A stretch of DNA of 64,000 bases from a virus, in the IMG/VR virus record IMGVR_UViG_3300043410_001242, one strand, 5' to 3'. Below the pieces are notes generated by a model that saw only the letters and a program-made list of their open reading frames with translations, did not search any database and was not told the DNA's origin. Below are positions 4,968 to 22,249 of the stretch, in pieces. Position 1 is the stretch's first letter. Each line of letters begins with the position of its first letter. Made by a program: the position numbers and the translations under genes.

Positions 4968-5238
4968 GAGTTTTATGGTTATTTGTAAGATTTCAGGTGT
5001 ATACCACAAACGTCAACGGTCTAAATGGTATCCAATAACACCGTTTGTTGCCAGAAAACTGGTTTCACAAGGTGCAAAGATAATGAAGGAAATTAAATGA
5101 GTAGAATTATCGCATTGGTTTGGGTAGGTGGCGCAATAGTAAACCCGGCAGGTACCAAGATTCTGCTGGGTAAGTCTGTTGATTTGATCCATAATCTATT
5201 TGGTGTTATTATGCACCATATTTCTACGGTGTCTTAAT

Positions 5239-5415
5239 ATGGAGTCATATATTGTATGTACCTCATGCGAAGAAGAGCATTTGGTATCCGAATTAGATAA
5301 AGAACATATTGATATTCAACAGGATATGTTGGGACATGATGTTTTGATTTATAAATGCCCTGTTACTGGTCGTATATCAAGAGCGTTCATTAGAAATAGA
5401 CTTGAGGAAGTATAA
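5239..5415 (+). CDS. Small Cys-containing hypothetical protein
   Basis: CTSC...CPVTG. Confidence 0.5.
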   Translation: MESYIVCTSCEEEHLVSELDKEHIDIQQDMLGHDVLIYKCPVTGRISRAFIRNRLEEV

Positions 5416-19603: not shown

Positions 19604-19644
19604 TTGACAAAATTACTCAAGAATAGTATAATCCAGTATAAATA
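19604..19644 (+). promoter_or_regulatory. Tandem sigma70 and T4-type late promoters for pmoC
   Basis: TTGACA (19604)-17-TATAAT (19627); TATAAATA 19637-19644. Confidence 0.8.
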
Positions 19645-19731
19645 GTTTTGATGATGTGGAGAGTGTGACAGGATGTCGCACCTAACTCACAAGGACGTAT
19701 TTTGTAACTTTAAGATGTAAAGAGGTATAAT

Positions 19732-20508
19732 ATGTCAGCTATTAGTGCAAATGCTGTTAGAGAGGAAGCACCAGTCTTGAATAAGGCTTGGTTGTCTTTC
19801 GCGTTTGGTTTGTATTTCGTATTCTATCTATGGGTACGTTGGTATGAAGGTGTATATGGTTGGTCCGCAGGACTTGATTCATTCGCACCTGAGTTTGAAA
19901 CCTATTGGATGAATTTCTTATATACAGAAATTGTCCTAGAAGTCACAACCGCAAGTATTCTTTGGGGTTATCTTTGGAAGTCAAGAGATCGTGATCTTGC
20001 CAATATTACACCAAGAGAAGAACTTCGCCGTAATATGACACACCTTGTATGGTTATTTGCTTATGCAAATGCAATCTACTGGGGTGCATCATACTTTACT
20101 GAACAAGATGGTACTTGGCATCAGACTATCGTAAGAGATACTGATTTTACTCCAAGTCATATCATTGAGTTCTATCTTACATACCCAATCTACATTATTA
20201 CTGGGTTTGCTGCATTCCTTTATGCAAAGACAAGACTTCCTTACTTCGCACAAGGACTTAGCCTTCCATACTTGGTAACTGTTGTAGGACCATTTATGAT
20301 CCTTCCAAATGTTGGTCTTAATGAATGGGGACACACCTTCTGGTTTATGGAGGAACTTTTTGTCGCCCCTTTACATTATGGTTTCGTGTTCTTTGGTTGG
20401 CTTGCTTTGGCTATTGCGGGTGTATTGCTACAGGTCTTCTCATCTTTTGCTGGTTTAATCGGCGATCAGATTGTTGAGTCTGTTGATAAGGGTTTGATTG
20501 CAAAGTAA
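19732..20508 (+). CDS. pmoC: Particulate methane monooxygenase subunit C
   Basis: WSAGLDSFAPEFETYWMN; EQDGTWHQTIVRDTDFTPSHIIEFY; NVGLNEWGHTFWFMEELFVAPLHYGF; metal ligands intact. Confidence 0.97.
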   Translation: MSAISANAVREEAPVLNKAWLSFAFGLYFVFYLWVRWYEGVYGWSAGLDSFAPEFETYWMNFLYTEIVLEVTTASILWGYLWKSRDRDLANITPREELRRNMTHLVWLFAYANAIYWGASYFTEQDGTWHQTIVRDTDFTPSHIIEFYLTYPIYIITGFAAFLYAKTRLPYFAQGLSLPYLVTVVGPFMILPNVGLNEWGHTFWFMEELFVAPLHYGFVFFGWLALAIAGVLLQVFSSFAGLIGDQIVESVDKGLIAK

Positions 20509-20528
20509 TCTAACTCACATAACCAAAC

Positions 20529-20556
20529 AAAGGGGAACTTCGGTTCCCCTTTTTTA
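20529..20556 (+). terminator. Intrinsic terminator after pmoC
   Basis: AGGGGAAC-TTCG-GTTCCCCT then T-tract. Confidence 0.9.
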
Positions 20557-20562
20557 TTGCAA

Positions 20563-20618
20563 TTTTAATGGAATCTTAATATAACTGTAATACTCCGGTA
20601 ACATTCCTGTGATAAAAT
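20563..20618 (+). promoter_or_regulatory. OmpR/PhoB-type 11-bp-phased direct repeats with extended -10
   Basis: TTTTAAT/TCTTAAT/CTGTAAT/CGGTAAC/CTGTGAT at 20563, 20574, 20585, 20596, 20607; TGaTAAAAT. Confidence 0.5.
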
Positions 20619-20649
20619 ACCTTCGTATTTTTAAACAACGGAGACATAA

Positions 20650-21366
20650 ATGAAGAAATGGTTACTTTTAGTTCTTATTCTTATATCACATTCTGTATTC
20701 GCGAATGGAGAAGGTTCTGAACAATTATTTGGACAATGGACACAGTTTGCAGCTTACGGTAATTTTGGTAACAAAAGTCCTTGGATTTGGTGGACTGATG
20801 TTGCAGTAAGAAGTTCTCAGAATCATAAAGCAAAAGACGGAACACAAGGTTATGACGTTGGTTCTATTCCAACTCATAGCGCAGTAGGATACCAATTTGA
20901 TCCATCCAATTCTTTGATGTTGGGTTATACATATCAGTATAGTCAACCACCATACGCAAAGAAATCAACCAATGAAAATCGTATCTATCAACAATTTCAA
21001 AACTCTTTAGATTGGAAAGAAAACGGTAAACTAACAAACAGAACTAGATATGAACAGAGATGGGTTACATATTCCAGTGAAATGGCTCAAAGGTTGAGAC
21101 ACCAAGTTAAGTTTCAATATCCTATCAATAAAGACTGGGGATTCGTAATTAGTGATGAATTGTTTCTAAATATTAATAGTGTAAACTGGGGACCAAAGGC
21201 TGGATTTGACCAGAATAGAGTGTTTATTGGACCCGTTTACAATATAGATGACAGACAGAGAGTAGAGTTTGGTTACATGAATAACTATGTAAACAAAGAC
21301 TTAAAATCAGATCTAGATAATGATGTGTTAGTTATTAACTATTATTACAATTTTACAGATTATTAG
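20650..21366 (+). CDS. DUF2490-like outer-membrane beta-barrel protein
   Basis: Signal peptide; NENRIYQQF, NRTRYEQRW, RLRHQ, SDELFLN, GFDQNRVFIG, VEFGYMN; aromatic C-terminus. Confidence 0.85.
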   Translation: MKKWLLLVLILISHSVFANGEGSEQLFGQWTQFAAYGNFGNKSPWIWWTDVAVRSSQNHKAKDGTQGYDVGSIPTHSAVGYQFDPSNSLMLGYTYQYSQPPYAKKSTNENRIYQQFQNSLDWKENGKLTNRTRYEQRWVTYSSEMAQRLRHQVKFQYPINKDWGFVISDELFLNINSVNWGPKAGFDQNRVFIGPVYNIDDRQRVEFGYMNNYVNKDLKSDLDNDVLVINYYYNFTDY

Positions 21367-21374
21367 GAGGAATT

Positions 21375-21446
21375 ATGTGGGAAAAACCTTCATTTAAAGA
21401 CATTCGTTTGGGATTTGAAGTAACTACCTATATCTACAATAGATAA
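21375..21446 (+). CDS. pqqA: Pyrroloquinoline quinone precursor peptide PqqA (23 aa)
   Basis: MWEKPSFKDIRLGFEVTTYIYNR: W.KP...D.R.GFEVT.Y..NR signature with Glu-X3-Tyr; AGGAGG RBS at 21365-21370; not in ORF track. Confidence 0.92.
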   Translation: MWEKPSFKDIRLGFEVTTYIYNR

Positions 21447-21447
21447 C

Positions 21448-21476
21448 TTGACAAAACATTCTTATTGTGATACAAT
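21448..21476 (+). promoter_or_regulatory. Sigma70 promoter
   Basis: TTGACA-17-TACAAT. Confidence 0.75.
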
Positions 21477-21501
21477 ATATACTAAATTATGGAGAGTGAA
21501 A

Positions 21502-21822
21502 ATGGCAAAGCATAAGTTTGTTGTAATTAAAGGCAGAAACCTTTTTGTAGGAATTCATGGGTTACAGTATGAGATTTTTGATACTGTAACCTTTGAATGC
21601 AAGGAAGAACAAGTCACAGACTTACAACGGAAGTACGTCTATCGTAAACTACATACAGTAGACAACAAAAGTAATCCACTTTCTTTTCGCAGAAAAGTGT
21701 ATTGTCGTAGGCGTCATATTCTAAAACATGACGGGTCTATCTTTGCAGATAGAATCAAATTATTTGACCATGAAGATGGAACATATTACGGGTTTATTCC
21801 TGTAGAGTGTTTTAAATTCTAA
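21502..21822 (+). CDS. Hypothetical protein
   Basis: GGAG RBS before ATG 21502. Confidence 0.6.
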   Translation: MAKHKFVVIKGRNLFVGIHGLQYEIFDTVTFECKEEQVTDLQRKYVYRKLHTVDNKSNPLSFRRKVYCRRRHILKHDGSIFADRIKLFDHEDGTYYGFIPVECFKF

Positions 21823-21856: not shown

Positions 21857-22249
21857 ATGAAGAAGCTTTTTGTATTTGTACTTTCTGCATTTCTTTTTGG
21901 ATGTGCGGGCACCACTAAGTGGGAACCTACTCTGAATAGTATGCCACACAAGAATCAGGCGGCCGAGTCGAAGGATCTTGCAGAGTGTAAGGATCTCGCG
22001 TTCCAGGCGGCAGGGTACGTCAAGGAAGGTGCAGAATGGGCATTTGTGAGTGCCGCAGGTGGTGCTGCTGAAGGCGCCGTGATCGGTGCCTTGGTGTCTG
22101 GTGCTGGTGGCGCAGGTATGGCCGCTGCAGCTGGTGCACCAATTGGTGCAATCGCCGGTCTCTGGTATGCTGAATATGAAGCAGATATTAATTATAAGAG
22201 AGCATACTCAAATTGCCTATTCCAGAGAGGTCATTATCCTATTAACTAA
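21857..22249 (+). CDS. Glycine-zipper lipoprotein
   Basis: Lipobox LFGC; DLAEC...G/A-rich zipper...YSNCLFQRGH. Confidence 0.8.
   Translation: MKKLFVFVLSAFLFGCAGTTKWEPTLNSMPHKNQAAESKDLAECKDLAFQAAGYVKEGAEWAFVSAAGGAAEGAVIGALVSGAGGAGMAAAAGAPIGAIAGLWYAEYEADINYKRAYSNCLFQRGHYPIN

Follow-up and report, generated by a model that had tools for sequence, protein, structure and literature searches.

Phages that carry pmoC, the gene for subunit C of particulate methane monooxygenase (pMMO), were described by Chen et al. (2020, Nat Microbiol; PMC7674155), and PqqA, the precursor peptide of pyrroloquinoline quinone (PQQ), was reported together with methanol dehydrogenase in Methylophilaceae phages of Lake Baikal (Coutinho et al., 2020, Microbiome; PMC7678222). 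Phages with pmoC and phages with pqqA have therefore both been known since 2020. The viral record IMGVR_UViG_3300043410_001242 of IMG/VR, which is analysed here, holds pmoC and pqqA close to each other, with a gene for a predicted outer-membrane barrel of the DUF2490 family between them. The sequence inspected is a 64-kb stretch of a phage genome of ~170 kb; it is called the window below, and all absences reported for the window refer to these 64 kb. In the literature searched, no description of a pmoC+pqqA pair was found, and the Lake Baikal study (PMC7678222) is the only report that discusses a phage pqqA. An earlier sequence-only reading of this DNA, which knew of no described phage module of pmoC and pqqA, was thus right about the pair, but phage pqqA as such had already been published in 2020 (PMC7678222). 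Undescribed in the literature searched are the linkage of pqqA to pmoC, its counterpart with amoC, and the breadth of hidden pqqA in phages.

The window fits the definition of a pmoC-phage sensu Chen et al. (2020), having a stand-alone pmoC without adjacent pmoA or pmoB. As in the phages of that study (PMC7674155), the gene resides in a large T4-like freshwater phage, its product is near to host PmoC, keeps the copper ligands and groups with other phage copies, and pmoA/B are not nearby. The difference lies in pqqA, which is linked to pmoC in the window and four contigs and is present in four further pmoC-phage records. Table S7 of Chen et al. gives the PqqA family, without discussion, for one pmoC-phage only, TP6_1, where it was called at 36 amino acids (aa; PMC7674155). 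The Lake Baikal phages (PMC7678222) resemble the window phage in being T4-like freshwater phages of one-carbon (C1) oxidizers that encode PqqA, and the same boost of methanol oxidation was proposed for them. Their host, however, is a methylotroph and not a methanotroph, and the partner of PqqA there is methanol dehydrogenase, the PQQ enzyme itself, whereas here it is subunit C of the enzyme that acts one step earlier, and a methanol dehydrogenase gene is absent from G128, a pqqA-carrying pmoC-phage genome. A preprint on amoC-phages, in which genes were called by Prodigal and pqq is unmentioned, also reported large phages that encode subunit C of a copper membrane monooxygenase (CuMMO) on its own, together with an outer-membrane porin gene, oprP (10.64898/2026.06.18.733297); here, by contrast, pqqA was found directly after an amoC of the type of ammonia-oxidizing bacteria (AOB) in four contigs.

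Cyanophage psbA, which encodes D1 of photosystem II, offers an analogy, not a homology: one part of a multi-subunit energy system, presumably one in high demand, is supplied by the phage, and the rest comes from the host. The high turnover of D1 is documented; for PmoC a comparable turnover, and for PqqA a depletion during infection, would be presumed. PqqA also differs from D1 in being a consumed substrate rather than a subunit.

The pmoC gene (positions 19732..20508, + strand) encodes a full-length protein of 258 aa. It scored 406 bits against PF04896 (E=5.7e-122) and 380 bits against TIGR03078, above the cut-offs of 26.7 and 280.6 bits, respectively. Residues 7-258 align to residues 8-260 of PmoC from Methylococcus capsulatus (7ev9_C; E=1.5e-144), i.e. 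over the whole length. The ligands of both copper sites, Asp156/His160/His173 of CuC (FTEQDGTWHQ...PSH) and Asn227/His231/His245 of CuD (LNEWGH...APLH; M. capsulatus numbering), are identical in the window protein. The statement of the sequence-only reading that PmoC bears the copper sites of pMMO thus holds here for all six ligands. The gene is preceded by a sigma-70-type promoter at 19604..19632 (+ strand; TTGACA-17-TATAAT, 12/12 match), whose start coincides with the left edge of the island as drawn in that reading, and a terminator-like hairpin at 20529..20552 (+ strand; 10-bp stem followed by a T run) closes the pmoC unit. Promoters of the sigma-70 type are the kind that serves early genes in T4-like phages. 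A candidate T4-type late promoter at 19637 (TATAAATA) was set aside, the motif being unenriched in the window (4 found versus 7 expected).

Phylogenetic analysis of 127 PmoC sequences placed the window protein in a phage-only clade of ten rows (support of 96 in the Shimodaira-Hasegawa-like approximate likelihood ratio test), which is sister to contigs of metagenome-assembled genomes (MAGs) of type Ib Methylococcaceae. This placement points to the likely host group: type Ib Methylococcaceae methanotrophs are most likely infected by the window phage. A MAG contig labelled Methyloversatilis universalis (L102, DYIL01000002.1) carries a gamma-type pmoC, and its genome was among those sampled from the order of the Methylococcaceae genome G121; its name in NCBI is probably wrong.

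The pqqA gene (21375..21446, + strand) encodes a 23-aa PQQ precursor peptide, MWEKPSFKDIRLGFEVTTYIYNR, with a W-x-x-P leader and an E-x3-Y core, in which the cross-linked residues are E15 and Y19. The peptide scored 42.4 bits against PF08042 and 42.2 bits against the equivalog model TIGR02107, about twice the cut-offs of 21.1 and 20 bits. Its ribosome-binding site, AGGAGG (21365..21370, + strand), lies 4 nt upstream and overlaps the stop codon of the barrel gene. Among the pmoC-linked copies of pqqA, which are described below, 7-9 of the 23 codons differ synonymously in each pairwise comparison, while the core DIRLGFEVT.YI is invariant, and every copy compared retains a ribosome-binding site although the upstream DNA is unalignable. 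Synonymous changes around an invariant core, together with the kept ribosome-binding sites, make a pattern of purifying selection on the translated peptide. It is firm that both pmoC and pqqA are intact, reside in the phage and evolve under purifying selection.

In Methylococcales, pqqA was present in 109 of 121 genomes, and pqqC adjoined it in all three that were checked; candidate hosts are thus equipped to process the peptide. Host pqqA is followed by pqqB and pqqC, and it was not found within 8 kb of pmoC at 80 bacterial pmoC loci. The phage peptide fits the same equivalog model and is only a few positions off Methylococcales PqqA, but in contrast to the bacterial pqqABCDE(F) operon, phage pqqA stands alone, without pqqB-E. 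The pmoC-linked phage peptides share RLGFEVT[T/C]Y versus RFGFEVTMY in Methylococcales hosts, and differ from the host peptides at three shared positions, with I, L and T/C in place of M/L, F and M.

The context of both genes is that of a T4-like phage. Genes for gp32, gp59, PhoH and the baseplate proteins gp5, gp6, gp48 and a gp8-like protein are present, and T4-like genes flank the island on both sides; the window also holds a 2-oxoglutarate (2OG)-Fe(II) oxygenase gene and homing endonuclease genes near the island. The GC content at third codon positions (GC3) is 0.32 for pmoC, 0.26 for the barrel gene and 0.29 for pqqA, as compared to 0.26-0.40 for other phage genes (window GC content, 0.36) and 0.60-0.81 for the closest bacterial pmoC genes; the composition of the island genes has been ameliorated to that of the phage. 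Two IMG/VR contigs from other samples, L010 and L014, show the window backbone at 62-87% identity, with pmoC and pqqA in the same place. This common backbone comprises o16541, an AAA/CbbQ-like ATPase, WYL_2, hyp124, a glycine-zipper lipoprotein and Nlig-Ia. Phage-like GC3, a backbone that recurs in other assemblies and a PmoC clade made up of phage sequences argue against contamination with host DNA. Assemblies do often break at pmoC, as host copies are so similar (Chen et al., PMC7674155), and the region could on that ground be a chimera of phage and host DNA. Against this stand the GC3 values of all three genes, far from those of bacterial homologues, the independent assemblies L010 and L014, the phage-type promoters and terminators that punctuate the region, and the purely phage clade of PmoC; a chimera is exceedingly improbable.

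The sequence-only reading had seen an intact pmoC, a DUF2490-like barrel and a pqqA inside a T4-like phage, and profile searches confirmed all three at the coordinates given here, on the + strand. It had also placed pmoA/B and pqqB-E outside the window; tblastn with host proteins found neither pmoA, pmoB nor any of pqqB-E in the 64 kb. Searches of GenBank phages with the DNA of the island and with the PmoC protein gave no match, and PHROGs contains no family for PmoC, the barrel, PqqA, hyp124 or the lipoprotein.

The pair of pmoC and pqqA is not restricted to the window. A six-frame scan for PqqA-like open reading frames (ORFs) in the best 80 viral pmoC loci of IMG/VR, a check proposed in the sequence-only reading, recovered it in four further contigs. 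A gap of 73-82 nt separates pmoC from the pqqA that follows it on the same strand in L008, L009 and L014; in L010, where pqqA again follows on the strand of pmoC, the distance is 2.1 kb and holds inserted genes. The copies are not degenerate, a possibility which that reading had raised against itself: the core is kept, and all of them exceed the TIGR02107 cut-off. In L009 (6853-6981), the pqqA stop codon is lost, and the frame reads to ~42 aa with the core intact. The flanks of L008 and L009 are unlike those of the window and include genes for RNase H, a GroES-like protein and 2OG oxygenases, and the PmoC proteins of the window, L008, L009, L010 and L014 are all members of the same phage-only clade. 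No pqqA was detected at the 80 bacterial pmoC loci, each taken with 8-kb flanks, from which we conclude that it was in phages that the linkage arose. The shared RLGFEVT[T/C]Y motif and the common PmoC clade suggest a single origin of this pair.

A second case involves amoC, which encodes subunit C of ammonia monooxygenase. Four IMG/VR contigs of another T4-like lineage encode a 270-aa AOB-type AmoC, and an intact pqqA comes ~90-100 nt after its gene on the same strand: L237 (3659-4635), L248 (5606-6583), L278 (4573-5550) and L284 (3960-4936), all on the - strand. The phage AmoC scored 428 bits against TIGR03078 and is 68% identical to the betaproteobacterial AmoC of Nitrosomonas eutropha. The amoC-linked PqqA scored 44 bits and is of host type at the positions where the pmoC-linked peptides differ, which indicates that the adjacency of amoC and pqqA arose independently. 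This second occurrence suggests that the arrangement of a C subunit gene followed by pqqA is selected.

On the strength of family knowledge and comparative evidence, we hold it rather probable that the phage PmoC joins the host pMMO and that the host converts phage PqqA to PQQ, which would sustain the oxidation of methanol during infection. The T4-like phage would, on this reading, keep separately acquired, host-derived accessory genes in a variable region of early genes. With a host-type promoter and terminator of its own, pmoC would yield a complete copper-site subunit, which may be built into the pMMO of the infected host, a role already proposed for the known pmoC-phages; since pmoA/B are absent from the window, assembly would require the host subunits. 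PQQ is cut out of PqqA, and each molecule of the cofactor uses up one peptide. Since the phage has no pqqB-E, the host enzymes PqqD/E/B/C/F would have to process the phage peptide. When host transcription fails, phage PqqA may then maintain or increase the supply of PQQ to methanol dehydrogenase. A high demand for the precursor is suggested by Methylosinus trichosporium OB3b, in which pqqA transcripts outnumber those of pqqB-E ~30-80-fold (PMC3615186). Rather than being copied from a host operon, the pmoC-pqqA linkage would have been put together in phages and then inherited or moved as a unit, while other cargo entered between the two genes. What the genes are, that they are intact, that they reside in phages, and that they recur and are conserved is observed; what is inferred is that they are expressed, that PmoC is taken up into pMMO, that PqqA is converted to PQQ and that the phage benefits. 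The view that the phage supplies only a catalytic subunit and a precursor, taken over from the sequence-only reading, agrees with the window and with G128, a complete genome of 372 kb with terminal repeats, in which pqqC, pqqE, pmoA and a PQQ-dependent alcohol dehydrogenase were not found while controls with host genomes were positive.

The lack of phage pqqB-E (in the window; of pqqC and pqqE in G128) and the three shared positions at which the pmoC-linked peptides deviate from the host would also be expected of a peptide that acts as a decoy or regulator, tying up host PqqD/PqqE, or that is made into something besides PQQ. Yet phage lineages that differ by many synonymous changes all conserve the entire leader and the cross-linked Glu and Tyr, the substitutions stay within the range of phage pqqA copies, several of which are of host type, and all copies score above the curated equivalog cut-off. 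We therefore regard such a role as very improbable.

Several findings weigh against conversion of phage PqqA to PQQ in the service of methane oxidation. The linkage is not obligatory: L005 and L011-13 have the window backbone with pmoC and no pqqA. L004, L006 and L007 are 90% identical to L008 over pmoC and its flanks, but a segment of ~100 nt with pqqA is replaced by unrelated DNA (L004, L006: ~5100-5300; L007: ~2400-2600) with an ORF of ~26 codons, MKGFDQLGKHTDLHSAMKHLVSSHKQ; the difference is a cassette swap and not decay. Among 15 long pmoC-phage records searched over their whole length, pqqA is tens of kb away from pmoC in four (G126-G129, of which G127, G128 and G129 carry a Methylobacter-type PmoC) and missing from 11; four of these 11 are >=98% complete, with PmoC proteins 62-64% identical to that of the window. 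PQQ is tightly bound in mature methanol dehydrogenase, so that the gain from new PQQ in a short infection is uncertain. The oxidation of hydroxylamine is not PQQ-dependent, and we know of no role of PQQ in the step after ammonia oxidation; a simple next-step explanation is therefore unfit for amoC-pqqA. Finally, the sequence inspected covers 64 kb of a genome of ~170 kb. The proposal of the sequence-only reading that the genes serve two consecutive steps of methane oxidation gains from the recurrence of the pmoC-pqqA pair, but its strict form is disfavoured by pqqA following amoC as well. The linkage of pmoC and pqqA, made in phages and recurrent among them, is real but optional.

Much of this would suit a reading in which pmoC and pqqA are functionally uncoupled neighbours in a hypervariable early region, brought together by an insertion hot spot and common descent, with pqqA supplying any PQQ enzyme. 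Namely, pqqA is common without pmoC, both in IMG/VR and in cultured Methylophilales phages (see below), it is unlinked to pmoC in G126-G129, it behaves as a presence/absence cassette among near-identical phages, other cargo sits between the two genes, and the adjacent cases in the pmoC clade may share one origin. However, a C subunit gene followed on the same strand by pqqA arose once more in another T4-like lineage, where that gene is an AOB-type amoC and the peptide is of host type, and the pmoC-pqqA pair is linked in two flanking contexts, the backbone of the window, L010 and L014 and that of L008 and L009. Uncoupled neighbours are thus rather unlikely, though they deserve serious consideration, and a joint contribution of PmoC and PqqA to methane oxidation is preferred.

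One long record merits separate mention. L015/G126 (IMGVR_UViG_3300001580_000005, 259 kb) combines a pmoC that is split, a pqqA within an open frame of 39 codons and a homologue from the DUF2490 family, P0030, with 49% identity. It matches the description of TP6_1, with its fragmented pmoC and 36-aa PqqA (Chen et al., PMC7674155), and may be the same phage.

The gene between pmoC and pqqA (20650..21366, + strand) encodes a predicted outer-membrane beta-barrel of 238 aa with a Sec signal peptide, which scored 143 bits against PF10677 (E=9.6e-42; cut-off, 29.8 bits). The AlphaFold2 model, built from an alignment of 41 sequences, has a mean predicted local distance difference test score of 89.9 and consists of an N-terminal signal-like helix followed by an all-beta barrel. 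In PDB, the model resembled nothing more specific than generic barrels of autotransporters and small porins (e.g. KdgM and NanC), at TM-scores of ~0.44-0.59. A conserved buried charge network has been described for the DUF2490 family (10.64898/2026.07.29.741452), and the invariant Arg, Glu, Asp and Tyr columns of the barrel alignment fit it. The family is classified as a putative porin of unknown function (transporter classification 1.B.81; PMC4827864).

In the sequence-only reading, pmoC, the barrel gene and pqqA formed a single island. Taken further, this would make the three genes one C1 island, in which the barrel serves as an outer-membrane route for, e.g., copper, a lanthanide, methanol or PQQ. 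Its position is suggestive: the barrel gene lies between pmoC and pqqA, only 8 nt separate its stop codon from the pqqA start, there is no terminator in this gap, and the pqqA ribosome-binding site overlaps the barrel stop codon. Because it was inserted at that place, the barrel gene is probably co-transcribed with pqqA in the window phage. DUF2490 proteins were also present in 83 of 121 Methylococcales genomes (best identity, 41-47%), which makes a host origin of the barrel gene plausible; in one host genome, the homologue adjoins genes for a heavy-metal-associated membrane protein and carbonic anhydrase, and amoC-phages have been reported with the porin gene oprP (10.64898/2026.06.18.733297). 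Between that host homologue and the pqq operon there are 15 kb, which include uvrA and serine-cycle genes, and no clear hint of a function came from the neighbourhood of the best bacterial DUF2490 homologue.

On the other side, DUF2490 was found at none of the 80 viral pmoC loci, nor at the 80 bacterial ones with their 8-kb flanks. Among the relatives of the barrel with 48-88% identity, those whose contexts were read (L196, L198, L199, L203 and L204) all lie in phage-like surroundings without pmoC or pqqA nearby: in the T4-like contig L196, the gene stands beside those for the sliding clamp, clamp loader, RegA, HSP20 and dCMP deaminase, and in L199 beside those for PhoH, a metallophosphatase and a GT4 glycosyltransferase. 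The family has no established function (TC 1.B.81, PMC4827864), and the structural matches are to generic small porins. No evidence that the barrel serves methane oxidation was seen among these contexts and models. A three-gene C1 island is thus improbable. The barrel gene is an accessory gene unrelated to the pair, its insertion between pmoC and pqqA being confined to the window phage, and the single island of the sequence-only reading has to be given up. In L010 (6885-8819), this place is taken by genes for an LpxH-like metallophosphatase (251 aa), a 56-aa ORF and a glycosyltransferase (362 aa). Metallophosphatase and glycosyltransferase genes, found here and beside DUF2490 in L199, may represent a shared set of envelope-related cargo.

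Downstream of pqqA, a sigma-70-type promoter with TG (21448..21476, + strand; TTGACA-17-TACAAT) starts 1 nt past the pqqA stop codon, is conserved in L010 and L014 and would drive the conserved hypothetical gene that follows. The listed 124-aa ORF hyp124 (21448-21822, + strand) has no match in Pfam or PHROGs and begins at a TTG within this promoter; its true start is likely the ATG at 21502 (MAKHKF...), which gives 106 aa. The hyp124 gene accompanies pmoC or pqqA in every phage of the window backbone. It is followed by the gene for a glycine-zipper lipoprotein (21857-22249, + strand) with the lipobox LFGC and a GC content of 0.50 versus 0.36 for the window. This protein is 82-87% conserved in L010 and L014, where its gene also adjoins pmoC or pqqA, and may be an envelope or exclusion protein.

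The survey of phages at large revealed that pqqA is much commoner than reported. IMG/VR was scanned with a degenerate DNA pattern encoding D-x-R-[L/F]-G-F-E-V-T-x-Y-I, for which we estimate a chance expectation of ~0.01. At least 120 viral contigs matched, most of them without pmoC. Eighty of these loci were read (L205-L284); their GC content ranges from 0.29 to 0.47, pqqB or pqqC stands beside pqqA in none, and 79 encode a well-formed PqqA of 23-26 aa, the exception being L265. In L238, no start codon is present just upstream of the W-x-x-P leader.

A tblastn search of GenBank phages with the PqqA peptide retrieved 12 records, nine of which are cultured phages of OM43/LD28 methylotrophs. These nine, Venkman, four Melnitz isolates, P19250A, MEP301, MEP401 and MEP402, are Methylophilales/Methylophilaceae phages of several morphotypes, and in all nine genomes pqqA lacks an annotation. 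The ORFs extracted from five of them (Venkman, Melnitz, P19250A, MEP301 and MEP402) encode intact PqqA with 34-41 bits against TIGR02107 and have ribosome-binding sites; for MEP401 and the three further Melnitz isolates, the evidence is the tblastn match. The five unannotated genes, identified by tblastn and TIGR02107, are located at MT375522.1 9977-10045, MZ577095.1 ~74882-74953, KX815270.1 28085-28153, MW452941.1 3316-3384 and OP830907.1 43050-43118 (loci L341-L345). Each of them lies within an unannotated gap or beneath a spurious call on the opposite strand, the latter being the case in the Melnitz record. Such genes are overlooked because gene callers skip them on account of their length (Prodigal has a 90-nt minimum); a bacterial pqqA missed by annotation is documented for M. 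trichosporium OB3b (PMC3615186). One record, 'Acinetobacter phage MD-2021a' (CAKLQF020000010.1 105905-110032, L346), was rejected as a source of phage pqqA, as its locus, ppk-pqqA-pqqB-pqqC, looks bacterial.

Intact pqqA in cultured Methylophilales/Methylophilaceae phages and the Lake Baikal phage (PMC7678222) give independent support to the view that pqqA helps phages of C1 oxidizers. A wider claim would be that pqqA is near-universal in phages of C1 oxidizers, and perhaps of ammonia oxidizers, hidden by its length, that at least two independent lineages, one with pmoC and the other with amoC, have a module of CuMMO subunit C and, directly after it, pqqA, selected as a unit, and that CuMMO and PQQ are linked beyond the textbook pathway from methane through methanol to formaldehyde. 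We put this forward tentatively, as a possibility that we are inclined to doubt.

The catalogues of viral auxiliary metabolic genes, the GenBank records of methylotroph phages and the studies of pmoC- and amoC-phages under-report pqqA. The pairing of amoC with pqqA raises the question of a role of PQQ in ammonia oxidizers or their phages. Phage pmoC is already thought to affect the efflux of methane from lakes. If phages also feed the cofactor of the next enzyme, phage pmoC would be less likely to be a neutral passenger, and the viral reprogramming of methanotrophy would span more of the pathway than has been recognised.

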